A stretch of DNA of 64,000 nt from Rhodospirillales bacterium (GCA_028823885.1 JAPPFK010000152.1:293-64292); one strand, 5' to 3'; positions 10,128 through 48,917 are shown, counted from the first letter of the stretch. Translations and numbers: made by a program. The notes: generated by a model not told the origin, from the letters alone.

Positions 10128-10233
10128 GTCACGAACGCTTGGACGGCATCAAAGCGCAGCCGAGCGCGATTTTTCGTTTGAGCAAATCGTTGCTTCCGAT
10201 AAATCGATTAGTTGACATTGCACACCGGAAATC

Positions 10234-16019: not shown

Positions 16020-16049
16020 TGATGCGGCGAATTGGTGGAATTACGGACG

Positions 16050-17255: not shown

Positions 17256-17308
17256 CCCGCGTCCCGGCAGCTGAATTGTGCATCCGTACGTAGGACAACC
17301 CCCCACCG

Positions 17309-18828: not shown

Positions 18829-18845
18829 ATAGTTGACCCGACCTC

Positions 18846-19721: not shown

Positions 19722-19728
19722 GGGCCGA

Positions 19729-20772: not shown

Positions 20773-20773
20773 T

Positions 20774-22690: not shown

Positions 22691-22693
22691 CGA

Positions 22694-22792
22694 TCAGAAG
22701 AGAGACGGCAACAGGAAGGAACCGAAGCGGGCGAACTGGGTCTCAAAGTAACCCAAATTGACGAACAGATAGGAAGACAAGACGGCGATCAT
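22694..22792 (-). CDS. possible mini-ORF encoding a single TM helix, coupled to the GT-C gene
   Basis: My own translation: MIAVLSSYLFVNLGYFETQFARFGSFLLPSLF*. It is extendable to TTG starts at 22810, 22828 or 22861, giving LDSAKALAVLAWMIAVLSSYLFVNLGYF. Its TGA lies 3 nt before the ATG at 22690. Below the ORF-track cutoff and speculative. Confidence 0.25.
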   Translation of the reverse strand: MIAVLSSYLFVNLGYFETQFARFGSFLLPSLF

Positions 22793-22982
22793 CCAAGCCA
22801 GTACGGCCAAGGCTTTTGCGCTATCCAAATTCTCTGTCCTCCCGGAGACCGCGACGTACAAGCTGCCGCATGATAACCATGGCCACGTTCGAAGTTAAGA
22901 CCGCCGGCTCGGCCCAATGACCATTGTTCACCGTCACCTAGCACATCGCCGCGGTGATTCAAGACAACATTAGCCACTCAGG

Positions 22983-27076: not shown

Positions 27077-27093
27077 TTCCTGATCAATCTTGA

Positions 27094-27840
27094 GCTTCTT
27101 GGGAGACGCCAATCTATAAGGGCCGGCGAATAATTCTCATCGCACCGGCATTTGACGAAGCCGGAAAGATCGAGAAGGTCGCGGAAGCGGTTCCCTACGA
27201 CATCGTCGATACATTTCTCGTCGTCGATGACGGTTCCACGGACGATACCGCGGCATTGGCCCGAGCGGCCGGAGCGCGCGTGATTTCCCACGACAGGCCG
27301 CTCGGCGTGGGAACGGCAATCAAACGCGGCTACCGCGTGGCGCTTGAAGAGAACTTTGATATCGCGGTGGTTATCGCAGGAAACAACAAAGACGACCCGC
27401 GTGAGGTTACACGGCTGCTCGACCCGATCTGTTCCGGAGATTCCGAGTTTGTCATGGGTTCGAGGTATCTGCCCGGGGGGTCATTCGGCGGTGACATGCC
27501 GGCGTATCGCGTGTTTGCAACCAGGTACATCCATCCGCTTATCGTCCGGCTCCTCACCGGCGCGAAGGTCACCGAGACATCCAACGGATACCGGGCAATT
27601 GCCACCAAGGCCCTCCGGGATCCTCGCATACGGTTGGAACAATCATGGTTAAAGGACTATCAGCTGGAAATGTACCTCATCATGAAGGTGCTGATGCTCG
27701 ACGGAATCCGGACCACGGAGGTTCCGATCTCAAAAATCTATCCACCAAAAGAAATCGGCTATACAAAAATGACTCCTGTTATTGGGTGGTGGAAAATGCT
27801 TTATCCCCTATTCCTGATTGGTCTTGGGATTCGAAGGTAG
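27094..27840 (+). CDS. family-2 glycosyltransferase, polyprenyl-phosphate sugar synthase type (DPM1/ArnC/GtrB-like), with start-codon problem
   Basis: The ORF track starts it at TTG 27256. The same frame upstream, however, encodes the GT2 N-terminus RIILIAPAFDEAGKIEKVAEAVPYDIVDTFLVVDDGSTDDTAAL. Codons 27094-27255 contain no ATG, GTG, TTG or CTG. A GTG at 27073 (GTGA overlap with the degT-like stop) is followed by an in-frame TGA at 27091. There is a C-terminal TM helix (VIGWWKMLYPLFLIGLGI). Confidence 0.65.
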   Translation, partial: ASWETPIYKGRRIILIAPAFDEAGKIEKVAEAVPYDIVDTFLVVDDGSTDDTAALARAAGARVISHDRPLGVGTAIKRGYRVALEENFDIAVVIAGNNKDDPREVTRLLDPICSGDSEFVMGSRYLPGGSFGGDMPAYRVFATRYIHPLIVRLLTGAKVTETSNGYRAIATKALRDPRIRLEQSWLKDYQLEMYLIMKVLMLDGIRTTEVPISKIYPPKEIGYTKMTPVIGWWKMLYPLFLIGLGIRR

Positions 27841-28365
27841 GTGGCGGTGGCGGAAGCAAACTTCAGAGATATTGGCATTGTCGATGTGGAATTCGGCGAT
27901 CGGGTCAATGTGGTCCGGCCGGTGAATCTCTATGGCTGCCGAATTGGAGACGACAGCTTCATTGGGCCATTCGTCGAAATCCAACGCAACGCGACGATCG
28001 GGAAGCGGACGCGGGTGCAATCGCACTGTTTCATCTGCGAACTGGTCACCATAGGTGACGACTGTTTCATTGGTCACGGCGTAATGTTCATCAACGACTG
28101 GTTCGATACAGGCAAGCCGGCGTTCAATCAGCCGGAGCTATGGGCGGAAACGATCATCGGCAATACGGTCAGCATTGGCTCAAACGCAACGATCCTGCCG
28201 GTTCATATCTGCGATCATGTCGTGGTTGGCGCCGGTTCGGTGGTAACCCGCGATATCACCGAGCCGGGAATCTATCACGGCAGCCCCGCAAAATTGGTCC
28301 GAACGCTCGACCCGGAAACCGAGACCGCCAACCTGAACTTTTCCCGCCGTCTCAGGCAACAGTAG
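27841..28365 (+). CDS. left-handed beta-helix (hexapeptide-repeat) sugar N/O-acyltransferase
   Basis: 174 aa of imperfect hexapeptide repeats (IGDDSFIGPFVEIQ, IGDDCFIGHGVMF, IGNTVSIGSNATI, VVVGAGSVV). Confidence 0.8.
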   Translation: MAVAEANFRDIGIVDVEFGDRVNVVRPVNLYGCRIGDDSFIGPFVEIQRNATIGKRTRVQSHCFICELVTIGDDCFIGHGVMFINDWFDTGKPAFNQPELWAETIIGNTVSIGSNATILPVHICDHVVVGAGSVVTRDITEPGIYHGSPAKLVRTLDPETETANLNFSRRLRQQ

Positions 28366-28418
28366 GTCCCAATAGGCTTTTGCCGCGGCGCCCGGCCTGG
28401 GGCGCGAGGAGATTGTAT

Positions 28419-28862
28419 ATGACCCGGACCGATCATCCCGACATCGAACCCCTGACCGAAGAGGAGGTGCGGAAATGGCCCAAGGAGGTCATCGTCGCCC
28501 TCACCGAGAAGTTCGAGGATGACCGCGGGGAAATCGTGCCGCTCGTCGACTTGGCGATGAAAAGCGCGGTCTGGATCACCTCCAAGAAAGGCAGCGTCCG
28601 CGCCAACCATTATCATAAGTCCGACTGGCACTTCTGTTATGTGGTCAGCGGCTCCATCGAGTATTACCACCGCCCGCACGGCAGCGGCCAGGAGCCGGAA
28701 ATGGTCCTGGTGAACAAGGGCGAGCTGTTCTTCACGCCGCCGATGGTCGATCACGCCATGGTATTTCCCGAGGATACGGTATTTCTCACCCTCGGACGCA
28801 ACTCACGCAGACAGGAGGTCTATGAGGCGGACGTGGAGCGTATCGACCCGATCAACCCGTGA
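28419..28862 (+). CDS. cupin-fold sugar isomerase/epimerase-like protein (FdtA/WxcM/RmlC-like)
   Basis: Internal ATG 28419 with AGGAG 8 nt upstream. 147 aa with DDRGEIVPL, ANHYHKSDWHFCYVVSGSIEY and the cupin His pattern. Confidence 0.6.
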   Translation: MTRTDHPDIEPLTEEEVRKWPKEVIVALTEKFEDDRGEIVPLVDLAMKSAVWITSKKGSVRANHYHKSDWHFCYVVSGSIEYYHRPHGSGQEPEMVLVNKGELFFTPPMVDHAMVFPEDTVFLTLGRNSRRQEVYEADVERIDPINP

Positions 28863-30121
28863 TCCAGCCGGTTTCCGTGACTTCGAAACACCATAGACGC
28901 GAGACCTGCCGGCTTTGCGGCAGCCGGAATCTGGAACAGGTTCTCTCGCTTGCCCCGACCCCGCCCGCAAACGCGTTCGTTTCCCGCGATGAACTGGGCG
29001 CCGAGCAGCCCTGCTACCCGCTCGACCTGCATTTTTGCAATGCGTGCACGCACGTGCAGCTGCTGGATGTCGTCGATCCCGGGGAACTGTTTTCGAACTA
29101 CGTCTATGTTTCGGGCACGTCGCCGGTATTCGTGGAGCATTTCGAAGAATATGCGATGAACGTCACCAAACGATTTGGCTCCGTCGACGGCCGCCTGGTG
29201 GTGGAAATAGGCTCAAATGACGGAACCCTGCTCGGGTTTTTTCGCGGCCACGGGGCGGAGATACTGGGCATCGACCCGGCGAGGCGGATTGCCGCGCAAG
29301 CCAACGCAAACGGCGTCAAGACACTCGCCGAATTCTTCACCCCCGGCCTGGCCCGGACAATCCGCCGGGAACATGGCGCGGCAAAAGTCGTCGCGGCCAA
29401 CAATGTCCTCGCCCACGCGGACGATCTCGCAGCCATCATCGACGGCGTCGCAACGCTGCTGGCCGATGACGGTGTGCTGGTATTCGAAGTGTCGTACCTG
29501 GCCGATGTCTATCGGCACCTACTGTTCGACACCATCTACCACGAGCATCTGGACTATCATTCCGTCAAACCGCTGGTGCCGTTCCTTGATGCCCGCGGTC
29601 TGTGCCTGACCCGTGTCGAGCGGGTGGCGTCCCATGGCGGCAGCATCCGTTGCTATGCGCAGCCCAAGGCCGCGGGACCCGCCATCCATGCTTCGGTCCG
29701 CCGGTGCATAACGGCCGAGGAAGATCTTGGTTTGGACCGGGCCGGGACCTTCCGGCAATTTGGAGAGCGGATCACCGGCCTCGGATCGCGGCTCCGGTCC
29801 GAGCTCAAATCCATAAGCGCGGCGGGCAAAACCATCGCCGCCTACGGCGCCCCGGCCAAGGCGACGACGTTGATGTATCACTTTCAACTGAGCGCGGCCC
29901 AAATCGAATTCATCGTTGACGACAGCGAATGGAAGCAAGGTTTGTATTCACCCGGATTGCATATTCCGGTCGTGGCAAGCAGTGAGATTTACCGGCAACG
30001 TCCGGACTACCTTCTTGTCCTGGCCTGGAACTTCGCCGATCCGATCATATCCAAGCATCAGGCCTTCCGCGATGCGGGGGGGACCTTTATCGTGCCGCTG
30101 CCGGAAATGAGGCTTATTTGA
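28859..30121 (+). CDS. NDP-sugar C-methyltransferase (TylCIII/NovU-like)
   Basis: 420 aa. N-terminal Zn-ribbon CRLCGS then CNACTHVQL, a class I MT core VVEIGSNDGTLL, and the C-methyltransferase C-terminal domain. GTGA overlap with the upstream gene. Confidence 0.75.
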   Translation: MIQPVSVTSKHHRRETCRLCGSRNLEQVLSLAPTPPANAFVSRDELGAEQPCYPLDLHFCNACTHVQLLDVVDPGELFSNYVYVSGTSPVFVEHFEEYAMNVTKRFGSVDGRLVVEIGSNDGTLLGFFRGHGAEILGIDPARRIAAQANANGVKTLAEFFTPGLARTIRREHGAAKVVAANNVLAHADDLAAIIDGVATLLADDGVLVFEVSYLADVYRHLLFDTIYHEHLDYHSVKPLVPFLDARGLCLTRVERVASHGGSIRCYAQPKAAGPAIHASVRRCITAEEDLGLDRAGTFRQFGERITGLGSRLRSELKSISAAGKTIAAYGAPAKATTLMYHFQLSAAQIEFIVDDSEWKQGLYSPGLHIPVVASSEIYRQRPDYLLVLAWNFADPIISKHQAFRDAGGTFIVPLPEMRLI

Positions 30122-30123
30122 TC

Positions 30124-31185
30124 ATGTCCAGTCATCTTCCAAAATCCGATATACGGGAAATCGTCGACCGGCTTGGTCCCGTCGCCGGGAGCTTTTCCGG
30201 CAAGACGGTATTGCTGACCGGGGGACGGGGTTTTCTCGGCCGCTATTTCTCGGAAGTCTTCAACCGGCTGAACCAGTCGGTTCTCGAGAAGCCGGCAAAT
30301 CTCGTCATCCTGGACAACCTCATTACCGCAGGCGAGGCCGGCCAATCCATGAAAGGCGGCGAGCACGTTCAATTGATCCGGCATGACGTCATCGAGCCTT
30401 TCGAGTTCGACGGCCCAATCGACTACGTGATTCACGCCGCCGGAATCGCCAGCCCGTTCTATTACCGCGCCTATCCCCTGGAAACGCTTGAAGTCGCGAT
30501 CGCCGGCACCCGCAACATGCTGCAACTCGCCGAAGACAACGGAGCGAGATTTACCTTTTTCTCGTCAAGCGAGATCTATGGCGACCCCGATCCCAAACAT
30601 GTTCCCATGGCGGAGAGCTACCGCGGCAACGTCTCCTGCCAGGGGCCTCGAGCGTGCTACGACGAGAGCAAGCGGGTCGGCGAGACCTTGTGTTACATAT
30701 TTCACAACATGCATGGCACCGAAACCAACACCATCCGCCCGTTCAACGTTTTTGGGCCGGGCATGCAGGAGACGGATTACCGGGTGTTGCCCAATTTCGC
30801 CAGCCGGATCAAAGGCGGACTGCCGTTGAACGTTTACGGATCGGGCAATCAGACCCGGACCTTCTGCTATATCACCGACGCCATGGTCGGCTTCCTGCTG
30901 GTGGTCCTCAAGGGCGTGCCCGGCGAGGCCTACAACATCGGAAATCCGGAACCGGAAGTTTCGATGATTGATCTGGTTGAGCGTCTGAAGGGCATTGTCG
31001 GCGAGAGCATAGAGTACAATCTGATCGAGTACCCCGACAGCTACCCCGCCGATGAACCCATGCGCCGCAGCCCGGACATCCGGAAGGCGCGGCTCCAGCT
31101 CGGCTTCAATCCCGAGGTCAGCCTCGACGAGGGGTTGAAGCGTTTTTTCGCATGGACCGATGGGGCCTACACCGGCGGACAATAG
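30124..31185 (+). CDS. extended-SDR NAD-dependent epimerase/dehydratase (UDP-glucuronate decarboxylase-like)
   Basis: VLLTGGRGFLGRYF (GxxGxxG) and catalytic YDESKRVGE (YxxxK). ATG 30124 preferred over TTG 30118. Confidence 0.8.
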   Translation: MSSHLPKSDIREIVDRLGPVAGSFSGKTVLLTGGRGFLGRYFSEVFNRLNQSVLEKPANLVILDNLITAGEAGQSMKGGEHVQLIRHDVIEPFEFDGPIDYVIHAAGIASPFYYRAYPLETLEVAIAGTRNMLQLAEDNGARFTFFSSSEIYGDPDPKHVPMAESYRGNVSCQGPRACYDESKRVGETLCYIFHNMHGTETNTIRPFNVFGPGMQETDYRVLPNFASRIKGGLPLNVYGSGNQTRTFCYITDAMVGFLLVVLKGVPGEAYNIGNPEPEVSMIDLVERLKGIVGESIEYNLIEYPDSYPADEPMRRSPDIRKARLQLGFNPEVSLDEGLKRFFAWTDGAYTGGQ

Positions 31186-31193
31186 TGCGAGAT

Positions 31194-31574
31194 TTATACG
31201 AACGCCGGCGTCTCGGGCCGCGAGAAAATCGCTGCGACTATCGCCGACAAAAGCGCCCTCAGCGCCTCTTCGGCGGTTGGGTAAATCACCGTCTTCTCAA
31301 CGGGCCGCGCCCGATACTGTTCGATGAACATGTCGACCGCGGCCTCCACTTGCCCGGCTGCCGCCTCCTCGCCCGTTGCGGTGAACGCACCCTCGATCAT
31401 GTACCGAGCGCCATGCCCAACCAGCGCCCGAACCCCATCCAGCGCCAAAGCCGGCCGGTCAAACTCGGCCAGCATCCTATTGAGCGCCGCGGCGACATCG
31501 GGAACACTGTCGACAAGGGTGCCGTCGAAATCAAAAACCACGGACGCGCGCGATCCAAGTGCCGGAATAGCCAT
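31194..31574 (-). pseudogene. frameshifted, 3'-truncated duplicate of gph
   Basis: The first 110 aa are identical to gph (6611-7294). The 196-bp deletion then shifts the frame (tail IVAAIFSRPETPAFV), and the last ~38 codons of gph are absent. Confidence 0.85.
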
Positions 31575-31666
31575 TGCAATCCTCAGCCTCCTGCTTATTC
31601 AGATGACAGATCGGTATCGAGCTTTCAAGCGGCGCAAGGCCGCCCAATCCGGAACCTCACTGATCG
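31200..31666. repeat. direct repeat, copy 2 (gph 5' part plus upstream region, 196-bp internal deletion)
   Basis: See copy 1. 31243-31666 is identical to 6963-7386, and 31200-31251 is about 92% identical to 6724-6775. Confidence 0.9.
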
Positions 31667-31700
31667 CTGACCGGTCCATCATTTCAACTGCAGCCTTACG

Positions 31701-32705
31701 ATGATGGCGCTTGGTATCGGATTATTCATTGCCGCCCTCGCCGCCACCTGGTTGGCGACCGGCCTTGTGATAAGGCTACTCAATCGACAGTCGATCCTTG
31801 ATCATCCGACCAATCGCTCGAGCCATACCGTACCGACACCGCGAGGGGGCGGTTTGGCGGTGGTGCCAATCGTTGTCGTGACTTGGTTGATCGCCGTCTG
31901 GATTCTCGGTGACAAATCGCCCGGACCATCGGTTCTGTGGGCCCTGGCCGGCGGTGTTTTACTCGGCTGGGTCTCGTGGCGGGATGATATCCATGGATTA
32001 CCGGTTATCTGGCGCCTGGCGGTCCACATACTTGTTGTCGCGTTGGTACTTTTCTCAACCGAATTTTCCGCATCCTTTACTCGGGGACTGTTGCCGCTTT
32101 GGTTGGAGTATCCGCTTGCCGCGTTCTTACTGCTATGGTTCCTCAACCTGTTCAATTTCATGGACGGTATCGACGGCATATCAGGAATAGAGACGACGTG
32201 TGTGGGCCTTGGCTGCGCGGGCGTCGCTTGGGCTAGCGGAAATCATGAGTGGATTGGCGTCCTTGGTCTCTCCATTGCCGGCGCGGGTATCGGTTTCCTG
32301 AGATGGAATTGGCAACCGGCAAAAATTTTTCTTGGCGACGTTGGCAGCATCCCCCTCGGGTTTTTGCTGGCATGGTTGTTGTTGGCGCTCGCTGCCGAGG
32401 GCGCCTGGGCGGCGGCGCTGATTCTTCCGCTCTATTACCTGGGTGATGCGACGGTAACGATCGTCCGCCGAGCAACCCGCGGCGAACGAATCTGGGAAGC
32501 GCATCGGGAGCACTTCTATCAGCAGGCGGCGCGGCGGGATGGAGGGCATGCGCGGGTTTCCATCGCTGTGGCGATAGCCAACCTGGTATTGATCGGCCTC
32601 GCTATCTGGTCACTGGACAAACCGCTGCCGGCGGTCGCCGCGGCAATCCTCGTCGTCGCGTTGTTTCTCATATACCTTGCCAAATCAGGCCGGCCGGCTC
32701 AGTGA
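31701..32705 (+). CDS. polyprenyl-phosphate HexNAc-1-phosphate transferase (WecA/MraY family), initiating enzyme
   Basis: 334 aa, about 10 TM segments, NLFNFMDGIDGISG motif, HTVPTPRGGG loop. Confidence 0.85.
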   Translation: MMALGIGLFIAALAATWLATGLVIRLLNRQSILDHPTNRSSHTVPTPRGGGLAVVPIVVVTWLIAVWILGDKSPGPSVLWALAGGVLLGWVSWRDDIHGLPVIWRLAVHILVVALVLFSTEFSASFTRGLLPLWLEYPLAAFLLLWFLNLFNFMDGIDGISGIETTCVGLGCAGVAWASGNHEWIGVLGLSIAGAGIGFLRWNWQPAKIFLGDVGSIPLGFLLAWLLLALAAEGAWAAALILPLYYLGDATVTIVRRATRGERIWEAHREHFYQQAARRDGGHARVSIAVAIANLVLIGLAIWSLDKPLPAVAAAILVVALFLIYLAKSGRPAQ

Positions 32706-39445: not shown

Positions 39446-40684
39446 TCACCTCCTGGCGTCCGTCACCGTCACCAGCAGCGCAGCGCCGACGGCGAAAAAC
39501 ACGATGATGGTCGCCATGCCCCAGCGCTGGCTTTCGGTCAGCGCGGTGACGAGGCCGAACAGGAACGGCCCCAGAAATGCGGTCGCCTTGCCGGAAAAGG
39601 CGTACAGGCCGAACATCTCCGTCCGCATGCCCTCCGGCGCCAAGTGCGCCATCATCGACCGGCTGGCTGCCTGCGCCGGCCCGACGAACAGGCCGAGCAC
39701 CGCGCCCAGAACCAGGAACACGGTCTTGTCGGTGACCGCCAGCACGACCGCGCCGGTGACGATCAGGCCGGCCAGCGAGATCAAGATGGTTCGTTTGGGC
39801 CCGATCCAGTCGTCGATCCACGCGAACGCCGCCGCGCCCAGGCCCGCCGTCACGTTGATGGCGACGGCGAACTGCAGGACCTCGGCGGTGCTCATTCCGA
39901 AGGCGCCGGCGGCGAACACGCCGCCCATGGCGAACAGGGTCACGAGGCCGTCATTGTAGATCAGCCGGGCGATCAGGAACCGGAGGATGTCCCCGTATTT
40001 CCCGATGCCCTTGAGGGTCGTCCACAGCAGCGCGAGCCCGTCGCGCACGGCCCGGCCCATGGGCAGCCCCTGCGCCGGCACATCCGGCGTAAACAGGAAC
40101 AGGGGAATGGAAAACACCCCGAACCATGCGGCGACGAGCACCGAGGTCGCCCGGATCTGCTCGATGGAAGAGGTATCGAAACCGGCGAGGATGACCACCA
40201 GACAGGCGAGCCCGCCGACATAGCCGAGCCCCCACGCCCACCCGGAGACCCGGCCGATCATCCCCTTGGGCGCCAGGTCCGGCAGCATGGCGTTGTAGAA
40301 GACAATCGCCATTTCGAAGCCGATATTGGCGAGCACCACCAGACTGAGCGCCGCCAGAATGAACGCCGCGTCGGGCTCGATGAACCACAACAGCGCGGTC
40401 GCGGCGACCGACAGATAGGTAAACCCGAAGATCCAGGGCTTTCGCCGCCCGCCCTTGTCGGCGATGGCGCCCAGGACCGGCGCCAGGATGGCGATGGCCA
40501 GCCCCGAGGCCGAAATGGCGAAGCCCCACTGGGCGGTGCCGGATACCTCGTCGACGGCCACCGACTTGGCGAAGTAGGTGGCGAAAACGAAAGTGATGAT
40601 GATCGTGGTGAAGGCCGAGTTGGCCCAATCGTAAAAACACCACGCCGCGATGCCGCGTTTGCCAGAAGAATACGGACTATTCAC
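39446..40684 (-). CDS. MFS transporter (UMF1/Atg22-like family)
   Basis: 412 aa, about 12 TM segments, family-typical N-terminus AAWCFYDWANSAFTT. Confidence 0.8.
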   Translation of the reverse strand: MNSPYSSGKRGIAAWCFYDWANSAFTTIIITFVFATYFAKSVAVDEVSGTAQWGFAISASGLAIAILAPVLGAIADKGGRRKPWIFGFTYLSVAATALLWFIEPDAAFILAALSLVVLANIGFEMAIVFYNAMLPDLAPKGMIGRVSGWAWGLGYVGGLACLVVILAGFDTSSIEQIRATSVLVAAWFGVFSIPLFLFTPDVPAQGLPMGRAVRDGLALLWTTLKGIGKYGDILRFLIARLIYNDGLVTLFAMGGVFAAGAFGMSTAEVLQFAVAINVTAGLGAAAFAWIDDWIGPKRTILISLAGLIVTGAVVLAVTDKTVFLVLGAVLGLFVGPAQAASRSMMAHLAPEGMRTEMFGLYAFSGKATAFLGPFLFGLVTALTESQRWGMATIIVFFAVGAALLVTVTDARR

Positions 40685-40766
40685 CTGAGTATCCTGACCA
40701 CTTCATCGTCAACCCATAGTCTATAATCCACCTAAAAACTCCTCCTTCAATTAGCAAGAATCGTTT

Positions 40767-42119
40767 ATGCATCTTAATCGGGGGTTTTCACCGATGAATG
40801 TGAATAAATATGTCGAGCTGGCTGTCGCGACTGATCGCCTTGATACCACAGGTCTAAATGCCAAGACCATGCCATTGCTTGGCTTGGCAGCAGAAATTGG
40901 TCTCCTGCTCGCAGAAATGCAAAAGGAGGTGCAAGTCTTGAGTGGTGCTAGTGGAACGAAGGGACTGTCGCCAAACCTTATGATCCAAGGCGAAGTTAAG
41001 AAAAAGCTCGGAAATATTATCTGGCACGTGGTTGCAATTGCTAGACGCGCAGGATTGGATTTCCAGAAGGACATACTACTAGGCAACTTGAACAAACTGG
41101 CCGGCAAACCCCCGGTGGTATCTACGGTTCCACGAGAGGCATTTGTTCGCCGGCAAAAATTGGTCAAGCTGTTGAACCGATCCGGTGATGATGCCGCCGC
41201 GACATTCAATCGCTACCAAGCCTGCGCCTGGGCCACGTCCAAGTACAAAACGAAATCCCGCGCGCTGGTTTACTTGGTCCAAATTTCACAAAATGGCAGC
41301 GAGTTAATCTCACGACTCGATTTGGCCCGACCACGTTTCGATGCCAATCAAAGATCCATAACCGCGGACAGCCTAGGCGACGTCATGTGGTACGTGGCCG
41401 CAATTGCACGAGTGTATTCCTTGCAATTGAACGATGTAGTCGCCGACAACATCAAACTTATCTACTCTCGGTGGCCGCCCAGGAAACACCGTAAACCCTC
41501 CGGGCTTTATGATTCCGAAGCTCCTGAACTTCAACAAATTCCTCGAAAATTCACTGTTGAATTCATTGACTGGGCCGTGGGCACAAAGATGCCCCGCAAG
41601 GCGATTATGTTGATTGACGGCGTGGTCGTTGGAGACCAGCTAACTGACAATTCGTACGATGATGATGGGTATCGCTTTCATGACGCTCTCCATCTAGCCA
41701 ATCTCGCTATTCTTGGTTGGTCCCCGGTCTTTCGGTCACTGCTTAAGCGAAAACGAAAATATGATCCTCAAATTGATGAGGTTGAAGATGGGGCGCGGGC
41801 TCAAATTGTTGAAGAAGCGATAGTGAAAATAACGCACTCCTATGCGTCCAAAATTGGTGGTGAGAATCTCTTAAACAATCAGAAGAATGTTCGATTTGAG
41901 CTTCTGAAGTGGATTCGTGAGCTTGCAGAGGGTCATGAAGTCGCTGGAGCTGATGGGAGGACCCACCCCTGCGAATATTGGGAGTGGGAAAGGGCGATTC
42001 TAGAGGGATTTAGGGTCTACGGCCTGTTACGAGCGAATGGGGGAGGGCGAGTAAGTGTGAATTTGGAACAACGATCAATTAAGTTCCGGCGGCACCGGAA
42101 AAAAGCCGTTAGAATTTAG
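40767..42119 (+). CDS. tandem MazG/HisE-like NTP pyrophosphohydrolase-fold protein with extra C-terminal domain
   Basis: 450 aa (alternative ATG 40794 with GGGGG upstream). Repeat 1 is LGLAAEIGLLLAEMQKE, then KLGNIIWHVVAIARRAGLDF. Repeat 2 is NGSELISRL, then SLGDVMWYVAAIARVYSLQLNDVVADNIKLIYSRW. The C-terminal ~160 aa include GYRFHDALHLANLAILGW. AT-richer DNA than the flanks. Confidence 0.55.
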   Translation: MHLNRGFSPMNVNKYVELAVATDRLDTTGLNAKTMPLLGLAAEIGLLLAEMQKEVQVLSGASGTKGLSPNLMIQGEVKKKLGNIIWHVVAIARRAGLDFQKDILLGNLNKLAGKPPVVSTVPREAFVRRQKLVKLLNRSGDDAAATFNRYQACAWATSKYKTKSRALVYLVQISQNGSELISRLDLARPRFDANQRSITADSLGDVMWYVAAIARVYSLQLNDVVADNIKLIYSRWPPRKHRKPSGLYDSEAPELQQIPRKFTVEFIDWAVGTKMPRKAIMLIDGVVVGDQLTDNSYDDDGYRFHDALHLANLAILGWSPVFRSLLKRKRKYDPQIDEVEDGARAQIVEEAIVKITHSYASKIGGENLLNNQKNVRFELLKWIRELAEGHEVAGADGRTHPCEYWEWERAILEGFRVYGLLRANGGGRVSVNLEQRSIKFRRHRKKAVRI

Positions 42120-42182
42120 TCCAGTAGGCGCAAGTCCAACTAACTATACCCTCCCCTCATTGACTGAGTTTGAGAATCCAGA

Positions 42183-43268
42183 ATGAGCAAAAAAAAACAA
42201 CTAACGTTTGCGAACATGTCGCCGAACCCGCTGGAAATCAATTCTGCTGGCAAATCGGAAACCAGGAGTTCTTCTTCAAGACCTACAACTCTACGTTCGA
42301 GACGACCGAGATCTACGCAGGTCTTCGAAACTTACTGGAAGTTTGCTGCGAAGCGACAGGAACTTTTTTTTGCAAGAATTGAGCACCCGAACCAGGGCTT
42401 TTGGACCGATGACCCCATTCTCCAAGAGCACAAATTTACAAATGCATATCGTGCCTCGGATCGCGTTAGCCAGTATTTGATTCGACAGGTGATTTATGGC
42501 GGAGACTTCGATCTCCAAGATACGGTCTTCCGAATCCTGCTGTTCAAGTTCTTCAACAAAATCGAGACCTGGGAGCACCTGGAACGTCAACTCGGGCCTA
42601 TAACTTGGTCAAGCTATGATTATTCGGCATATGACAGTGCGTTGACAAAATTGCTCGATCGAAAACAAACGATCTACTCCGCTGCCTACATAATGGCATC
42701 CGGTCGGTCAGCCTTCGGAGAATCTAGAAAGCATCGGAACCACCTGAAAATAATTCAAAAAATGATGGACGATCGACTTCCAGACCGAATTTACCAGTCC
42801 CCAAACTTGAAATATGTCTACGAGACTCTAATCGAATTTCCAGCAGTCGGGCCCTTCTTTGGCTTCCAACTGACTATCGACTTGAACTACTCAGAAATTC
42901 TCCAATTCGATGAGAACGATTTTGTAGTAGCTGGTCCTGGCGCATTAGACGGCATTAGGAAGTGCTTCGAGGACACTGGAGATATGTCCGCTCCAGACAT
43001 CATTCGATTTGCCACTGACTATCAACACCAAGCATTTGATGATCTCGACATTGATTTTCGAGATTTATGGGGAAGGCCTCTACATTTAATCGACTGTCAG
43101 AATTTGTTCTGCGAGGTCGACAAGTATGCGCGAGTAGCGCATCCGGAGTTCACCGGGAAGAGTGGACGAAAGCGTATAAAGCAAAAATTCAGACCGAATC
43201 TGCGCCCAATCAGCTATTGGTATCCGCCAAAGTGGGGACTAAACGAGAAAATTGCCGGAACGGCCTAG
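42183..43268 (+). CDS. aGPT-pyrophosphorylase-like protein (predicted DNA base hypermodification family)
   Basis: 361 aa. The block FETYWKFAAKRQELFFAR, then WTDDPILQEHKFTNAYRASDRVSQYLIRQVIY, then RILLFKFFNKIETW is recognised from memory as the signature of that family. Needs profile confirmation. Confidence 0.5.
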   Translation: MSKKKQLTFANMSPNPLEINSAGKSETRSSSSRPTTLRSRRPRSTQVFETYWKFAAKRQELFFARIEHPNQGFWTDDPILQEHKFTNAYRASDRVSQYLIRQVIYGGDFDLQDTVFRILLFKFFNKIETWEHLERQLGPITWSSYDYSAYDSALTKLLDRKQTIYSAAYIMASGRSAFGESRKHRNHLKIIQKMMDDRLPDRIYQSPNLKYVYETLIEFPAVGPFFGFQLTIDLNYSEILQFDENDFVVAGPGALDGIRKCFEDTGDMSAPDIIRFATDYQHQAFDDLDIDFRDLWGRPLHLIDCQNLFCEVDKYARVAHPEFTGKSGRKRIKQKFRPNLRPISYWYPPKWGLNEKIAGTA

Positions 43269-43273
43269 TATGG

Positions 43274-44050
43274 CTATTCGGCTAGCGCTCTACATTCTGC
43301 AAGCAATGCATTTACGGCCGCCCGATTTGCGTTGGCTGGTGTATCTATAATTGCGTGTGTGGAAATCACCGTTAGTCCACCTAAGTCAACGCCCGTCTCA
43401 TCACCGACAAATTTCATCAGCCAACCCAAGCCAAGCAAGTTCCCATACAGGCGCTGGATATAGTAGTGATTTCGATAGACCGCGGTTAGTTCCAAGGTAG
43501 TCTTATTTACCAGCTTGAAACTGAGATGACTTAGGCACGGTCCTCCAATTAGCCGATTTTCATCCCTCCCTGCATCGTAGGTTGAGATATCCGCGTCCAC
43601 ACCAGTGATCGGCAGTTCCAATGCGTTCCCATGAGTAGCATCTGCCGCCGCTTCTCTAGCAATTTTGTCAACAAGATTGTTGAGCCGATTTTCGCCGTGA
43701 CCAACCGTTGAGCCGGTCATCATTCGATTAAAATACGTCCCCCACGAACCTCGCTTAAGGCGGGGAAAAGCCCTCTCGTACCGCGCATAGAATTCAGGAT
43801 TTCCATACCTTGCATAGATATTCTGGGGAAAAATCAGATTTGCCGTCGATCGCGTGTCCTTCAGCCCGCTGGCAACCAAAAATTTGTCAAGGAGGTCTCG
43901 CGCCGCTTTGTCAGTTTCCGACTCCACAATCGGGTCTACGACTTCGATGACGATATTCCGAGATTGGCGGCCGTCCTGGGCATCCACGTGGTTTACAGCT
44001 CTGAGCCAAGCGTCGCCATTGCTGGTGCATGATCCAATGATTGCTGACAC
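43274..44050 (-). CDS. divergent thymidylate-synthase/pyrimidine-hydroxymethylase-fold protein
   Basis: 258 aa, GTG start 20 nt after the gdh stop. Collinear with ThyA landmarks by eye: WGTYFNRM, NRLNNLVDKI, GGPCLSHLSFKLV (nucleophile Cys), LELTAVYRNHYYIQRLYGNLLGLGWLMKFV, ISTHAII. Confidence 0.45.
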   Translation of the reverse strand: MSAIIGSCTSNGDAWLRAVNHVDAQDGRQSRNIVIEVVDPIVESETDKAARDLLDKFLVASGLKDTRSTANLIFPQNIYARYGNPEFYARYERAFPRLKRGSWGTYFNRMMTGSTVGHGENRLNNLVDKIAREAAADATHGNALELPITGVDADISTYDAGRDENRLIGGPCLSHLSFKLVNKTTLELTAVYRNHYYIQRLYGNLLGLGWLMKFVGDETGVDLGGLTVISTHAIIDTPANANRAAVNALLAECRALAE

Positions 44051-44069
44051 GCGGCCCCCGCTCCCGCCA

Positions 44070-47000
44070 CTACCCCGGCTGGGCGATGGCCGCCAGACGG
44101 CGGCTCGCCACGGCGAGCATGGAGAGATCGACGCTTTCCGCCGATTCGAGCTCGGCCAGCATCGCCCGGGTCTGGTTCATCGCCGCGCCGTGGCTCTCGG
44201 TCCAGTCGGCAAGCGCCTCATCGGGCTTCAGCCCGCCGCCCTTCCTGCCGTTCCGGCCGTTGACCATATTGAGCGTGATGCCCTTCTGGTGCGCATAGAG
44301 TTCCTCGATCACCGCATCCGCCGCCAGTTTCTGCCAGTGGCTGTCGGCGGGAAGCCTCTCCGCGTGGTGGCGGAGCCAGCCCAGTCCGAAAGTCTCGCCG
44401 ATCCGGAAATACAGCTCGGCCACCCGCCCCGCCGCCTGCCTGCAGTTCCGTGACGCGCGAACGATGTCGAGGGCCGAGACCAGCAGCAGCAGATAGGCGA
44501 CCCGGCGGGCGAGGTCCTTCGGAATGCCCTCCGAGCGGTAGCGCTCGACGCGGATACCGATCCGTTCGGTCACTTCCGCCGGAACGATCTTTTCGATCTC
44601 CGCCGCCAGGACCTCGATGGGGCCGGCGAATTCGCCGACGATTTCGCCGACGTCGATGGGCCGGGCGGCATTCCTCAGCAACCACAGGGTGGCCCGCTCG
44701 ATGAGCTGGTTGATGTCGAGGATCAAGGTCATTTGGATCCGCGCCGGCACCTTGTTGTCCAGCGCTTCGATCCGGTCCCAGATCGCCGCAATGCCGAAGG
44801 AGTCGCGCACCGCGAGGAACGCCCGGGCGATTTCGGCGACGCCGGCCCCGGTCTTCTCCATCATGTTGAAAACGAACGAGCCGCCGACCCGGTTCAGCAG
44901 GTCGTTAGTGACGATTGTGGCGATGAGTTCGCGGCGCAACTGGTGACCGCAGATTTCGGCCCGGTACTTCTTGCGGAGCGGGGTCGGGAAGTAATCGATC
45001 AGGTCGTCCTGAAGTTCCGGCGCATCCGGCAGGTCGCTGGCCAGGATCTCGTCATAGACCCAGAGCTTGGCGTAACTGAGCACGACCGAAATTTCGGGCC
45101 GGGTAAGCCCGAGACGCGCCCGTTCGCGCTCATTCAGCGCCTCTTCATCGGGCAGGAACTCCACATCCCGGACGAGCCCGGCCTCTTTCTCGAGGGTCCG
45201 GATCAGGCGTATCTGGAGATCCAGCAAATCGGCGCCGACCGTCCGGAACATGGTGATCGCCTGGGTCTGCAAATAGTTGTCCCGCAGCACGAGTTCGGCG
45301 ACCTCGCCGGTCATGTCCTCGAGCAGCTTGTTGCGCGCCGCCTGGGTGAGTTTGCCCTTGGCAACCGCGGAATCGAGCAGAATCTTGATGTTCACCTCGT
45401 GATCCGAGCAGTCGACGCCGGCCGAATTGTCGATGAAGTCCGCATTGAGCCGCCCGCCCTTCAGCGCGTACTCGATTCGTCCCAACTGGGTGACGCCGAG
45501 ATTGGCGCCCTCGCCGACGACCCGGCAATTCAGCTCCCGGGCATCGATCCGGACCGCGTCATTGGTCCGGTCGTCGGCATCGGCGTGCCCCTCGTCGGAC
45601 GATTTGACGAAGGTCCCGATGCCGCCGAACCACAGAAGCTCGACCTCGGCCCGGAGAATCGCCTGGATCAACTCGTTGGGCGTGACCCGGGACTTGGCAA
45701 TCCCCAGGGCATTGCGGATTTCGGCGGTGAGGGGGATGGATTTCGCGCTCCGCTCGAAGACGCCGCCGCCCTTCGAGATGAGCTTTTTGTCATAGTCCGT
45801 CCACGACGAGCGGGCGAGTTTGAACAGCCGCCTGCGTTCGGCGAACGATTTCGCCGGATCGGGATCGGGATCGACGAAAATGTGCAGGTGATTGAACGCG
45901 GCGATCAGCTTGATGTGCTTGCTGCGCAGCATGCCGTTGCCGAACACGTCTCCCGACATGTCGCCGACGCCGGCGCAAGTGAAGTCCTCGGCCTGGATGT
46001 CCTTCCCCGCCTCGCGGAAGTGCCGCTTGACCGATTCCCAGGCGCCGCGGGCCGTGATGCCCATCTTCTTGTGGTCGTACCCGACGCTGCCGCCCGACGC
46101 ATAGGCATCGCCGAGCCAGAAGCCGTAATCCATGGCGACCCCGTTGGCGATATCCGAGAACGTCGCGGTTCCCTTGTCGGCGGCGACCACCAGATAGGGG
46201 TCGTCGCCGTCGGCGCGCACCACGCGCCTGGGCGCGACGATTCCCCGCTCGGCGATATTGTCGGTGATGTCGAGGAGGCCCGACATGAAGGTCTTGTAGC
46301 AGGCGATGCCTTCCTCGATGTACGCCTCGCGGCCGCCGCCGGCGGGCGGGCGCTTGACGACGAATCCGCCCTTCGACCCGACCGGCACGATGACCGTGTT
46401 CTTGACCATCTGGGCCTTCATCAGGCCCAGAATCTCGGTTCGGAAATCCTCCGGCCGGTCGGACCAGCGCAAGCCGCCGCGGGCGACCATGCCGCCGCGC
46501 AGGTGGACCGCCTCGACCCGCGGCGAATAGACGAAAATCTCGCGCAGCGGCCGGGGCAGCGGCAGGTCATCGATGGCCCGGGAATCGTATTTGATGGAGA
46601 TGTACGGCTTGGGCTGGCCCTCGGCGTCGTACTGGTAGTAATTGGTACGGAGCGCCGCCTCCACCAGATTGACGAATCGCCGGAGGATGCGGTCTTCGTC
46701 GGCGCTCGCCACCTCTTCCAGCCGGTCCATGATGTCCCGCTTGAGCCTGGCCAGCCTCCGGGCCCGGCCCTTGTCCCGGTCCGGATCGAATTTGGCCTGG
46801 AACAGCCTGATGATGCGTTCGGCGATCACCGGGTTGTTGCGCAGCGTCGCCACCATGTAATCCTGGGAAAACGGAATGGCGGCCTGCCGGAGGTATTTGG
46901 CGAAGGCCCGGATGATGCTGATTTCCCGCCAGGTCAGCTTCGCGGTCAGGACCAGCGCGTTGAAGCCGTCGGACTCCATCTCGCCGTTCCAGATGCGGCG

Positions 47001-48917
47001 GAACGCCTCGTGGAATATCTCCCGGGTGGCGTCCAGGTCCACCTTGTCCGTATCGCGCGCCACCAGGCCGAAGTCGTGCAGCATGACCAATCCCGGATCA
47101 TCTTGCGCGACCTCGATGTTATGGGGCACCTCGTCGATCACCTTGAGGCCCAAATCCTCGAGTATCGGCAGGACGTCCGATAACGGCAACGGCTCCCTGG
47201 GATGGAAAACCTTGAACCTGACCTCGTTGTCGGCGGCGCCCTCGGGCCGGTAGAAATCCAGATTCAAGCCGCCTCGCTGCACCACGTGCTGGAGCAGCTC
47301 GATGTCGGAGAGCGCCGCTTCGGCGCCGAACTTCTCCGTATAGCTGACCGGAAACGCATCGCCGTAGGTGCCGAGCAGTTGGAAGCCGCGCTCCTCGCCA
47401 TGTCTGTCCACCAGCGCCGCGCGCAAATGATCCGACCAGGACCGGGAGGCCGACGAAAGCTCGGCCTCGACCGCTTCGTGGTCGTAGCTCGGCTTTTTCC
47501 CCGGCGTCGTCGTGATGATGACGTGCAGCCGGGCCAGGGGCGAATCGCCGATTTCGGTGTTGAACCCGCTGACTTCGCCGTCGAACACCCGGCACAAGAT
47601 CCGCTGAACCTGGACCCCGAGGCCGGTCGTGTAGCGTTCGCGCGGGATGTAGACCAGGCACGAAACGAACCGGTTGAAATCGTCCCGGCGGACGAACAGG
47701 GCCACCCGCTGGCGTTCCTGCAACTGGAGGATTCCCATGGATATTTCCATGAGATCCTCGTCGCGAATCTGGAACAGCTCGTCCCGGGGATAGGTCTCCA
47801 GAATGTGCATCAGCGCCTTGCCGGCGTGACCGGTCGCCGGCAATCCGGCCTTGGCGATGGTCTTGTCCAGTTTGCGGCGCAGGAGCGGAATGCCGCGCGG
47901 GCTCGACGAATAGGCGACGGAGGTGAACAGGCCGACGAACAAGCGCTCGCCGGCCACCTTGCCGTTGTCGTCGAACCGCTTGATCCCGATGGCGTCGAGG
48001 CGCACCGGCCGGTGCACGGTCGCCCGCGAGTCGGCCTTCGAGACCACCACCGGATCGCGCCGCCGGACGAACCGGCGGACGTCCGCCGGCATCTTGTCGA
48101 GGTGGCGCAGCTCGTTGAACACCAGACGGCCCGAGTCCCGCAGGATACCGAGGCCCGTCTTGCGGTTGACCAGGACCTTGGCGTTGGCGCCCGAGCCCTT
48201 GAAATCGTGATCCCGGTACCCCAGGAAGGTGAAATTGTCGTCGTGCAGCCACTGCAGGAAATCCTGCGCCTCGGCCACCTCGGCCGCGGCGCCCTCGGCG
48301 TAGCGAAGCTTCATTTCGTCGATGATCTCGCGAATTCGCCGCCGCATGTGGTGCCAGTCCTCGACCGCGCTGCGCACGTCCCGGAGCACCACCGACACGG
48401 TTTTCTCGATGGCCGCCAGGTGCTTCGGATCGCGCTGCCGGGTGATGTCGAAGGATATGAAGGATTCGCGCAGCACGTTGTCGCCGGTTTCCTCGTGGGG
48501 CAGCAGCGCCTTCAGGTTGCCGGCGCCGTCCCGCCGGACCGAAAGCACGGGATGGATGACCAAATGCACCTCGATCCCCTGCCGCGAGAGCTCGGAGGTC
48601 ACCGAGTCGACCAGGAACGGCATGTCGTCGTTGACGATTTCGATGATCGTGTGAGCGCTTGTCCAGCCGTCCTTCGCCGGATCCGGGTTGTAGACCCGGA
48701 GCTTCATCTCCCGCCGGCGGCGCTTGGCGGCCAAGGCGCAAATCGATCCGGCCGAACCGGCCATGTTCGCCGCGCCCCGTTCGTTCAGGTCGGGGAGCGA
48801 AATATGGGCGTAGAAGCTCCGCATGAAGTCGCCGACCATCCGGCGGTTGCGCCCCTTGAGCGCCCCGGCCGCTTCCCGCAACAGGGCCGCGCGCCGCCTA
48901 TCGGTGGATGTGCTCAC
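44070..48917 (-). CDS. gdhB: NAD-specific glutamate dehydrogenase, large (~180 kDa) type
   Basis: 1615-aa single ORF, GTG start. Its size and central catalytic region (VPVGSKGGFV, VVAADKGTATFSD, GGSVGYDHKKMGITARGAWE) are characteristic of the Bac_GDH family. Confidence 0.9.
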   Translation of the reverse strand: MSTSTDRRRAALLREAAGALKGRNRRMVGDFMRSFYAHISLPDLNERGAANMAGSAGSICALAAKRRRREMKLRVYNPDPAKDGWTSAHTIIEIVNDDMPFLVDSVTSELSRQGIEVHLVIHPVLSVRRDGAGNLKALLPHEETGDNVLRESFISFDITRQRDPKHLAAIEKTVSVVLRDVRSAVEDWHHMRRRIREIIDEMKLRYAEGAAAEVAEAQDFLQWLHDDNFTFLGYRDHDFKGSGANAKVLVNRKTGLGILRDSGRLVFNELRHLDKMPADVRRFVRRRDPVVVSKADSRATVHRPVRLDAIGIKRFDDNGKVAGERLFVGLFTSVAYSSSPRGIPLLRRKLDKTIAKAGLPATGHAGKALMHILETYPRDELFQIRDEDLMEISMGILQLQERQRVALFVRRDDFNRFVSCLVYIPRERYTTGLGVQVQRILCRVFDGEVSGFNTEIGDSPLARLHVIITTTPGKKPSYDHEAVEAELSSASRSWSDHLRAALVDRHGEERGFQLLGTYGDAFPVSYTEKFGAEAALSDIELLQHVVQRGGLNLDFYRPEGAADNEVRFKVFHPREPLPLSDVLPILEDLGLKVIDEVPHNIEVAQDDPGLVMLHDFGLVARDTDKVDLDATREIFHEAFRRIWNGEMESDGFNALVLTAKLTWREISIIRAFAKYLRQAAIPFSQDYMVATLRNNPVIAERIIRLFQAKFDPDRDKGRARRLARLKRDIMDRLEEVASADEDRILRRFVNLVEAALRTNYYQYDAEGQPKPYISIKYDSRAIDDLPLPRPLREIFVYSPRVEAVHLRGGMVARGGLRWSDRPEDFRTEILGLMKAQMVKNTVIVPVGSKGGFVVKRPPAGGGREAYIEEGIACYKTFMSGLLDITDNIAERGIVAPRRVVRADGDDPYLVVAADKGTATFSDIANGVAMDYGFWLGDAYASGGSVGYDHKKMGITARGAWESVKRHFREAGKDIQAEDFTCAGVGDMSGDVFGNGMLRSKHIKLIAAFNHLHIFVDPDPDPAKSFAERRRLFKLARSSWTDYDKKLISKGGGVFERSAKSIPLTAEIRNALGIAKSRVTPNELIQAILRAEVELLWFGGIGTFVKSSDEGHADADDRTNDAVRIDARELNCRVVGEGANLGVTQLGRIEYALKGGRLNADFIDNSAGVDCSDHEVNIKILLDSAVAKGKLTQAARNKLLEDMTGEVAELVLRDNYLQTQAITMFRTVGADLLDLQIRLIRTLEKEAGLVRDVEFLPDEEALNERERARLGLTRPEISVVLSYAKLWVYDEILASDLPDAPELQDDLIDYFPTPLRKKYRAEICGHQLRRELIATIVTNDLLNRVGGSFVFNMMEKTGAGVAEIARAFLAVRDSFGIAAIWDRIEALDNKVPARIQMTLILDINQLIERATLWLLRNAARPIDVGEIVGEFAGPIEVLAAEIEKIVPAEVTERIGIRVERYRSEGIPKDLARRVAYLLLLVSALDIVRASRNCRQAAGRVAELYFRIGETFGLGWLRHHAERLPADSHWQKLAADAVIEELYAHQKGITLNMVNGRNGRKGGGLKPDEALADWTESHGAAMNQTRAMLAELESAESVDLSMLAVASRRLAAIAQPG

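Follow-up and report, generated by a model that had tools for sequence, protein, structure and literature searches.

The subject of this analysis is an island of three genes in a stretch of 64,000 nucleotides from a Rhodospirillales bacterium (GCA_028823885.1, JAPPFK010000152.1:293-64292); we refer to the whole stretch as the window and count positions from its first letter. The island (40685-44069) lies between the gene of an MFS transporter (39446-40684, minus strand) on its left and gdh, the gene of an NAD-glutamate dehydrogenase of 1,615 amino acids (aa) (44070-48917, minus strand, stop codon 44070-44072), on its right. It is filled exactly by three intact open reading frames (ORFs): ORF1 (40767-42119, plus strand, 450 aa), ORF2 (42183-43268, plus strand, 361 aa) and ORF3 (43274-44050, minus strand, 258 aa, GTG start). 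A preliminary description of this DNA had placed the three frames at these positions, with converging stops 5 nt apart, and we find them so, the gap between the stops of ORF2 and ORF3 being 43269-43273. It had also put the start of ORF3 just past the gdh stop; the distance is 19 nt, and the gap contains a GGGAG-like ribosome-binding site. In this position, and on the same strand, ORF3 is probably co-transcribed with gdh.

The composition of the island sets it apart from its surroundings. Its GC content is 0.487 against 0.633 in the rest of the window (z = -3.8 relative to windows of equal size), which is under the minimum of all 539 equal-sized windows, and at the borders the value falls abruptly from about 0.66 to 0.46-0.52. 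The GC content at third codon positions (GC3) is 0.50-0.51 in the three ORFs versus 0.82-0.89 in purH and in the SIS, MFS, gdh and amidohydrolase genes. The abrupt switch to AT-rich DNA in the preliminary description is borne out by these values, and the run of A that it gave as an example lies at 42189-42197 rather than at 42187-42195. From GC and GC3 we conclude that the island is foreign DNA. Two Rhodospirillales metagenome-assembled genomes (L001 and L002) are syntenic with the window, with 93-94% nucleotide identity over the island and both flanks; since the island occupies the same site in all of them, its acquisition predates the divergence of these genomes.

ORF2 belongs to the Pfam family HMUDK_hel (PF18723; E = 5e-105, 351 bits against a cutoff of 25), which is the "aG/PT-PPlase clade 1" family of phages (ViI gp160, M6 gp55, SP10 gp186C). 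The ViI-type "aG/PT-PPlase1" (gp160-like) scores 4e-81 on PF18723, the M6-type gp55 matches it too, and SP10 gp186 is a fusion of a kinase with PPlase1 (PMC5889632, Table 3). ORF2 aligns with the M6-type gp55 at an hhalign probability of 99%. No match to PF18724 (aGPT-Pplase/ADDT, clade 2) is found in Pfam at E <= 1, and the hhalign comparison of the ORF2 family with the M6-type gp51, a clade-2 Pplase2, is not significant. The AlphaFold2 (AF2) model of ORF2 (pLDDT 89.5) has an all-helical domain of catalytic appearance after a disordered N-terminal tail. In a Foldseek search of BFVD, this model matches SP10 gp186 (E = 3e-15, TM 0.76) as well as PhiW-14 and "Pplase1 clade 1" proteins, and more distantly ADDT/Pplase2 of clade 2 (probability at least 0.99, E 8e-3 to 3e-2, TM 0.44-0.52). 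ORF2 carries WTDDPILQEHKFTNAYRASDRVSQYLIRQVIY, the signature by which an aGPT-Pplase had been recognised in the preliminary description; the signature is present and the lineage stands, with the correction that ORF2 is a clade-1 Pplase, a member of an orphan family, and not the biochemically proven clade-2 amino-acid:DNA transferase.

The motif D304-x-Q306-N307-x-x-C310-E311-x-x-K314-Y315 of ORF2 (43092-43127, plus strand, with the Cys-Glu dyad at 43110-43115) does not vary among 40 homologues and is a candidate active site. The corresponding segment reads LCEHDKY in the M6-type gp55 and ACEIDK in DS-4C, where C-E and D-K are kept and Tyr is not. ORF2 has Q-N-x-x-C-E in place of the E-T-x-x-C of clade 2, whose enzymes flip 5-hydroxymethyldeoxyuridine (5-hmdU) out of DNA and depend on an essential Cys (PMC8989533; PMC13458397). 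Residues 1-40 (42183-42302, plus strand) are predicted to form a disordered, basic, Ser/Thr-rich tail, with 10 Lys or Arg and 15 Ser or Thr among the first 45 residues, that many homologues lack; this extension may serve in the binding of nucleic acids or in regulation. There are 428 relatives of ORF2 in 50,697 phage genomes. The nearest relatives of all (55-62% identity) adjoin genes for a canonical thymidylate synthase (TS), a dCTP-deaminase-like protein (DCD), TIR and Nmad2, MazG_C-ACPS fusions, Mrr, Vsr, integrases and relaxases, and these settings are DS-4-like and defence-island-like (DS-4 is compared with the island below). Many bacterial members of HMUDK_hel carry a fused thymidylate-kinase domain, PF02223, at the N-terminus (e.g. 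P0158, P0173 and P0221), and in phages and bacteria the family is repeatedly paired with some kinase, be it 5-HMUDK, a dNMP kinase, a dTMP kinase or MazG_C.

ORF3 encodes a divergent enzyme of the ThyA fold. Its AF2 model (pLDDT 86, pTM 0.88) has the alpha/beta fold of ThyA, and Foldseek matches it in the PDB with a probability of 1.0 and E of about 3e-8 to MilA, to the L. casei and human ThyA and to AfhB (TM up to 0.58), with 395 matches at E <= 1e-3, at a sequence identity to members of the ThyA / (d)NMP hydroxymethylase superfamily of only 12-16%. No Pfam model, PF00303 included, matches ORF3; 11 of 26 relatives match PF00303 weakly (best E 1.7e-4), and the NCBIfam model of archaeal TS, TIGR03283, matches ORF3 itself locally only (E = 2e-8, 33.8 bits against a cutoff of 174). 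The catalytic core (43439-43537, minus strand) has the motif PCLSHLSF...YRNHYY...GN, which includes P171-C172, and hhalign aligns Cys172 (43535-43537), Arg193 (43472-43474) and Asn204 (43439-43441) with C146, R166 and N177 of E. coli ThyA at identical spacing. In ThyA-fold enzymes, the Cys thiolate attacks C6 of a pyrimidine mononucleotide and a group is transferred to C5; R166 of ThyA binds phosphate, and an Asn at the position of N177 specifies uracil and an Asp cytosine. Among ORF3 and 144 representatives clustered at 50% identity, C172 and Y106 are present in 145 of 145 sequences, and R109, R193 and N204 in 144. The earlier call of a ThyA-like protein with a PC motif is thus upheld by both fold and Cys. 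His207 and Tyr209 of ThyA are not conserved in the family, which counts 1,160 representatives at 50% identity (E <= 1e-10) and has no Pfam model. At one related locus (L083, 5838-10696), an ORF3-type gene (8295-9104) stands beside M78 and helix-turn-helix (HTH) genes, and a canonical TS-family gene (6898-7911) follows directly after HMUDK_hel, with ACPS and DCD at the locus as well. Because this locus holds both genes, the ORF3 family is not just a replacement of canonical TS.

ORF1 joins two MazG repeats to a MazG_C domain. The latter (PF18722, residues 247-442, 41505-42092, plus strand; E = 1.9e-62, 210.6 bits against a cutoff of 29.7) is the extra domain that had been noticed before, correctly as to its presence, at a size of about 160 aa, where Pfam gives some 196. 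The motifs of the family (LTDN, YRFHD..HLA, GWSPV, KRK and DE.EDGARA) are all kept in ORF1 according to a conservation profile. MazG_C has been described as a predicted nucleotide kinase (PMC13092281), which makes it doubtful to say, as the preliminary description did, that the island has no DNA kinase; that statement holds for the 5-HMUDK P-loop kinase, which is absent. The MazG part matches PHROG 229, "MazG-like pyrophosphatase", at E = 2e-23, and the Pfam MazG model (E = 5e-4, 20.7 bits, under the curated cutoff of 22) at residues 202-236, in the second repeat. PDB sequence searches with ORF1, ORF2, ORF3 and their profiles return nothing meaningful. The true start of ORF1 is more likely Met10 (ATG at 40794), because GGGGG precedes this ATG and the alignments of homologues begin there.

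The K/N residues in the first MazG repeat and SLGD-VMWY in the second are both present as described earlier. Repeat 1 (40794-41081, plus strand) keeps E43 and E50 and has K79-K80-L-G-N83 for EELGD (codons 41001-41015), so that it reads V-K78-K79-K80-L-G-N83 where relatives read V-V-E-E-L-G-D. In an alignment with 52 MazG homologues from related cassettes, the KKLGN change is shared only with the L001 orthologue, the other sequences having EELGD or a motif close to it; the L002 orthologue, which is split by an insertion sequence (IS) and lies outside this alignment, reads EIKNKLGN. Repeat 2 (41214-41486, plus strand) has E179 and D201-S-L-G-D205-VMWY and is the candidate for the surviving metal site of ORF1; it is similar at locus L073 and degenerate in most cassettes. 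The protein falls in a tandem-repeat subclade with a mutated first site. The predicted pyrophosphatase activity of ORF1 is plausible, not assured.

The genomic settings of the ORF3 family place the island in a wider context. Relatives of ORF3 were collected in a scan of one genome per species (187 genomes), and 80 loci were fetched for the context counts; these represent Alpha-, Beta- and Gammaproteobacteria, Acidobacteriota, Verrucomicrobiota, Planctomycetota, Gemmatimonadota, Nitrospirota, Chloroflexota and Myxococcota. In 72 of the 80 loci, MazG_C is found no more than about 2 kb from the ORF3-type gene, and 21 loci have HMUDK_hel; the three families do recur together, in 17. Clustering of neighbouring ORFs and Pfam scans reveal a conserved cassette of 7-10 genes in about 70 of the 80. 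It begins with a small protein of about 115 aa, followed by an XRE-type HTH protein, an ImmA/M78-chagasin (I42) fusion, a papain-like C1 peptidase and the TS-like gene, and this operon converges on a MazG/MazG_C gene together with either a family-4-like uracil-DNA glycosylase (UDG) or HMUDK_hel. The UDG-like gene is present at 54 loci, HMUDK_hel at 21, both at none and neither at five (Fisher p = 6.5e-15), and the MazG subtype follows the type of partner. Many cassettes add ACPS/PPTase-like and DCD genes, and a dTMP-kinase-like gene is found at nine of the 80 loci.

The first protein of the cassette (e.g. L087, 7621-7965; L070, 7590-7925) has no Pfam match; it has an invariant D-S in IDSLxVV and a GGY, and the IDSL motif aligns weakly (hhalign E 4e-4) with the phosphopantetheine site of the E. 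coli acyl carrier protein. These motifs and the adjacent PPTase-like gene suggest a carrier protein. Together, the HTH, ImmA-chagasin and papain-like genes resemble a proteolytic switch that can be induced; full cassettes with ImmA-I42 beside the papain-like C1 peptidase are found in L087 (7105-14511), L088 (5522-12055) and L089 (7611-13260). The GC content of the cassettes is about 3.7% below that of their flanks, and lower in 90% of 49 loci. They sit among metabolic genes, as in Mesorhizobium (L087) and Sorangium (L088), or beside AlpA, type IV secretion system (T4SS) and relaxase genes, and once on a plasmid (L057). A locus of Sphingomonadaceae (L064, 9935-10675) was considered as an independent trio free of regulators and rejected, the TS-like gene being N-terminally truncated and abutting a VirB10-like T4SS gene; this copy is a decayed cassette. 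In the literature we find no paper that combines chagasin, ImmA, MazG and UDG, and no experimental or descriptive paper on the cassette.

The convergent arrangement of ORF3 against ORF1 and ORF2 is that of the HMUDK_hel-type loci. Searches of the 64-kb window with representatives of the carrier-like, HTH, ImmA-I42, papain-like and UDG-like genes (tblastn) find none of them (best E 0.47), and the window copy is without all four upstream cassette genes and without ACPS and DCD. The trio had been described as a stand-alone module; it is instead a lineage-specific reduction of the 7-10-gene cassette, in which the third enzyme is more often UDG-like than HMUDK_hel. The absence of the HTH, ImmA and papain-like module implies constitutive or gdh-linked expression. 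The reduced set is under purifying selection: dN/dS is 0.18-0.33 for the three ORFs (0.20 for ORF1 against L001, 0.23-0.33 for ORF3) at dS of about 0.12-0.22, compared with 0.10-0.23 for the MFS, SIS and gdh genes. In L002, an IS630-family element about 1 kb long (12472-13421), with HTH (12502-12882) and DDE (12887-13450) ORFs, splits ORF1 at the equivalent of window position ~41640. No relatives of ORF1 or ORF3 are found at BLAST level in the 50,697 phage genomes, and we therefore regard the trio as a cellular system and not as prophage scrap. A prophage remnant, considered separately, is ruled out by this result and by the lack of phage genes nearby.

Combining the information of the families, the cassettes and the composition, we read the island as the enzyme core of a bacterial conflict cassette that moves horizontally, is probably directed against phages and has pyrimidine nucleotides and DNA bases as its targets, and give this reading a probability of roughly one half. 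The function proposed in the preliminary description, modification of DNA or nucleotides or a conflict over the dNTP pool, suits this setting. Its parts are not equally firm. The assignment to the families and to the cassette is highly probable; the anti-phage role has about even odds; and the specific order of reactions given below is tentative and on balance doubtful.

By analogy, the cassette may reuse the chemistry of phage thymidine hypermodification. The phage route employs a dCMP deaminase, a dUMP hydroxymethylase and a dTTPase/dUTPase, and 5-hmdUTP replaces dTTP (PMC13458397); the DCD and dTMP-kinase-like genes of the extended cassettes mirror this route. TS and Pplase1 are a recurrent pair in phages (PMC9599517), and the pair is found in an M6-like phage cluster as well. 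In the proposed scheme, Cys172 of ORF3 would attack C6 of a dUMP-like uracil nucleotide and install a group at C5 in the manner of a hydroxymethylase. The MazG part of ORF1 would hydrolyse a competing (d)NTP, e.g. dTTP or dUTP, like the phage dTTPase/dUTPase, and its MazG_C domain would phosphorylate the modified nucleotide or the modified base. The C5-modified analogue would then be incorporated into replicating DNA, where ORF2 would flip out and process (excise, tag or derivatise) the aberrant uracil, a step that would fall to the UDG-like enzyme in most sister cassettes. As a net effect, replicating foreign DNA would be damaged or marked.

Several observations weigh against this reading. 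The metal site of the first MazG repeat is short of three acidic residues (EELGD to KKLGN). ORF3 is without the Arg126'/Arg127' pair of ThyA, the segment being N-A-L-E145-L-P and the family consensus at this position an invariant Y-E-L with E145 conserved at 97%; AfhB, a flavin-dependent dCMP hydroxylase of the TS fold, is among its top structural matches; and ORF3 may not be the hydroxymethylase-like step, given the canonical TS in L083. As for ORF2, a helix-hairpin-helix (HhH) glycosylase fold is only suggested by the model, for which Foldseek finds no significant match in the PDB (the best being OGG1, AGOG and QNG1 at E of about 0.5), and the parallel between its Cys and the E-T-x-x-C of clade-2 Pplase2 (PMC13458397) is suggested by motif inspection only. 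M6 gp55 was dispensable in vitro for the glycinyl-thymidine intermediate (PMC8989533). The loss of every regulator from the window copy is odd for a potentially toxic set of effectors, and the split ORF1 of L002 suggests that the gene is dispensable. Finally, none of the three proteins has a match in PADLOC-DB v2 at E <= 1.

The question is what else the three enzymes might do. They might act on free nucleotides alone, through depletion of dUTP, dTTP or dCTP, through house-cleaning or through a toxic or signalling nucleotide, with ORF2 also working on a nucleotide. MazG proteins belong to the NTP pyrophosphohydrolases, and the substrates of ThyA-fold enzymes are mononucleotides; HMUDK_hel is often fused or adjacent to thymidylate or dNMP kinases; and ORF2 has a weak structural neighbour, QNG1/DUF2419, whose substrate is a nucleoside monophosphate. 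Many cassettes have dCTP-deaminase-like genes, and nucleotide depletion (by dCTP deaminase or dGTPase) is, as Tal et al. reportedly found in 2022, an established defence strategy. It is ORF2 that makes such a purely nucleotide-directed system unlikely: its significant structural relatives are Pplase1 and Pplase2, the latter of which flips 5-hmdU from duplex DNA (PMC13458397), its basic disordered N-tail is typical of nucleic-acid binders, and it alternates with a family of DNA glycosylases.

Alternatively, the trio could modify the DNA of its own host constitutively, placing a 5-substituted deoxyuridine in the chromosome as an epigenetic or protective mark, much as phages hypermodify their DNA, instead of attacking invaders. 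The lack of regulators and the placement of ORF3 for read-through from a housekeeping gene would suit such a role, as would purifying selection and stability at one site in three genomes. Homologues of ORF2 function in the DNA-modification clusters of phages, and Lee et al. 2018 pointed to homologues in bacteria and considered that cells, too, might carry such modifications (PMC5889632). We hold this to be improbable, however, since the 5-HMUDK P-loop kinase and the clade-2 transferase, both shown to be necessary for hypermodification, are missing, no partner nuclease is present to read the mark, the counterpart of ORF2 in sister cassettes is a UDG-like glycosylase that removes bases rather than adding them, and the HTH/ImmA control of most cassettes implies that they act upon induction and not constitutively.

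A less favourable view is that the island is a decaying remnant, left without coherent function by the loss of the 5' half of the cassette. Four to six cassette genes are gone and have left no traces in the window, the canonical acidic MazG motif is lost in repeat 1, ORF1 is disrupted in L002, and the regulator-less locus L064 is clearly truncated. Against this, both the window and L001 have all three ORFs unbroken, the family-invariant residues are all kept in ORF2, ORF3 and MazG_C, dN/dS (0.18-0.33) is comparable to that of gdh (0.20-0.23), and the junction with gdh is tidy and has a ribosome-binding site; decay is accordingly quite improbable. A housekeeping pair, with ORF3 as an alternative thymidylate synthase and ORF1 as a house-cleaning MazG, is very improbable indeed: the ThyA fold with its Cys, Arg and Asn and the name "thymidylate synthase" of some relatives speak for it, but ORF3 is under the TS thresholds of Pfam and NCBIfam and has no Arg-Arg pair, the composition is foreign, the occurrence of the family in at least nine phyla is patchy and island-like, as a rule together with MazG_C and with UDG or Pplase1, and an ORF3-type gene coexists with canonical TS in L083.

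Two results are of most value beyond the trio itself, the delineation of the large unannotated ThyA-fold family and the alternation of ORF2-type and UDG-like genes. In otherwise identical cassettes this alternation is strict, which predicts that Pplase1 acts on uracil-type DNA bases. In its boldest form, which we consider rather unlikely, the proposal is that Pplase1/HMUDK_hel is a Cys-dependent base-flipping DNA enzyme that removes or derivatises 5-substituted uracil and is functionally interchangeable with UDG. If so, the trio would be a minimal pathway without regulators, by which an aberrant pyrimidine is made, built into DNA and then processed. Domesticated behind a housekeeping gene, it would provide either always-on immunity or the first cellular system of 5-substituted-uracil DNA modification. 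The full cassette would add a proteolytic switch (ImmA-chagasin guarding a papain-like protease) and a phosphopantetheinyl carrier protein, and the carrier protein would point to thioester chemistry new to DNA-base modification.

The orphan Pplase1, which was first predicted in 2013 and occurs in hundreds of phages and in thousands of bacterial proteins, gains a testable function in this way. The family of ORF3, a large ThyA-fold family outside Pfam in which the catalytic Cys, Arg and Asn are retained, would carry the chemistry of the TS superfamily over into biological conflict. The cassette itself, present in at least nine phyla, is a candidate for a defence system that lies outside defence islands, and its control module of protease and inhibitor is unusual. 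The enzymology could be reconstituted with the trio of the window, the smallest set that occurs naturally, and if its product is a modified nucleotide or DNA base, a DNA-labelling tool is possible.

Two further features of the DNA may be mentioned. The AT-rich region between the divergent MFS gene and ORF1 (40685-40766, plus strand) is a putative promoter region for ORF1 and ORF2. A perfect TATAAT lies at 40722-40727, 40 nt 5' of the annotated start of ORF1, and does not score above chance in a consensus promoter scan; promoter and terminator scans give no signal above shuffled expectation. Elsewhere in the window, GC is also low at about 9000-11000, 15000-23000 and 26000-32000 (0.52-0.60 against about 0.65-0.69 in the remainder), and these stretches may be more acquired DNA.

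We turn to the comparison with known systems. The closest validated relative, and the only experimentally validated cellular system with HMUDK_hel, is DS-4 ("NTTI") of E. coli, which consists of TS, a dNMP kinase, HMUDK_hel, TIR and Nmad2 and protects against phage (DeWeirdt, Mahoney & Laub, Science 2026, PMC13092281). Its component WP_087900470.1 is a full-length homologue of ORF2 (27% identity, E = 3e-31) with C-E-x-D-K kept, and both systems have a ThyA-fold enzyme and an enzyme of nucleotide phosphates. DS-4 differs in its canonical TS, to which ORF3 is not orthologous, in a P-loop dNMP kinase in place of MazG/MazG_C, and in TIR and Nmad2, of which the island has neither. ORF3 as an orthologue of the DS-4 TS was rejected, the hhalign probability between the ORF3 family and that protein being 1.3% and not significant. 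Since only one of the five DS-4 components is homologous, the trio is not a member of DS-4.

The full cassette contains orthologues of both ORF1 and ORF3 (35-46% identity each), with the order and the convergent orientation kept; the window differs in having HMUDK_hel, the minority type (21 of 80 loci). DefensePredictor validated DS-4 and listed a MazG/MazG-C/UDG/NMAD system as predicted and unvalidated (PMC13092281), and the full cassette is probably this "MazG + MazG-C + UDG + NMAD" system (PMC13092281, Fig. 6F/S12B), a match made by the list of domains only.

The hypermodification pathways of phages (M6, ViI, SP10, PhiW-14, PaMx11, SH-Ab 15599; Lee et al. 2018 and 2021; PMC13458397) resemble the trio in bringing together a ThyA-fold dUMP hydroxymethylase, a dTTP/dUTP pyrophosphatase and Pplase1, and ORF2 is homologous to M6 gp55, ViI gp160 and SP10 gp186C. 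M6-like phages, however, have the PF18748 kinase and the clade-2 transferase, and neither the 5-HMUDK P-loop kinase (PF18748) nor the clade-2 transferase is found in the island or among the other ORFs scanned. Tailoring enzymes dependent on pyridoxal phosphate (PLP) or of the radical-SAM type are also absent, and the genes lie in a cellular island instead of a virus. With the two defining enzymes missing, the trio is therefore not a phage hypermodification pathway. In the ViI-like Klebsiella phage XDRKpn-1 (L081, 4898-7044), a "MazG-like pyrophosphatase" gene lies directly 5' of Pplase1 and echoes the pair ORF1-ORF2. The protein was rejected as a relative of ORF1, with no Pfam match and no detectable similarity, so the adjacency of MazG and Pplase1 is an analogy and not a sign of shared ancestry.

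With the ThyA superfamily (ThyA of E. coli and L. casei, the CMP hydroxymethylase MilA and AfhB of phage HY126), ORF3 shares the fold, the P-C Cys and the equivalents of Arg166 and Asn177, and it differs in its genomic context, a conflict cassette. The nucleotide-depletion defences have in common with the island the theme of dNTP-pool editing, and genes of the DCD family are found in many sister cassettes; the window has no DCD gene, and an enzyme for C5 modification together with a predicted base-flipping enzyme implies more than depletion. As cited in PMC8989533 and PMC13092281, the Aravind group reportedly predicted conflict systems of nucleotide or base modification that contain these domains (Iyer 2013; Burroughs 2015). 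The kind of system is already known, and the trio represents the HMUDK_hel type of the larger cassette in a reduced form.

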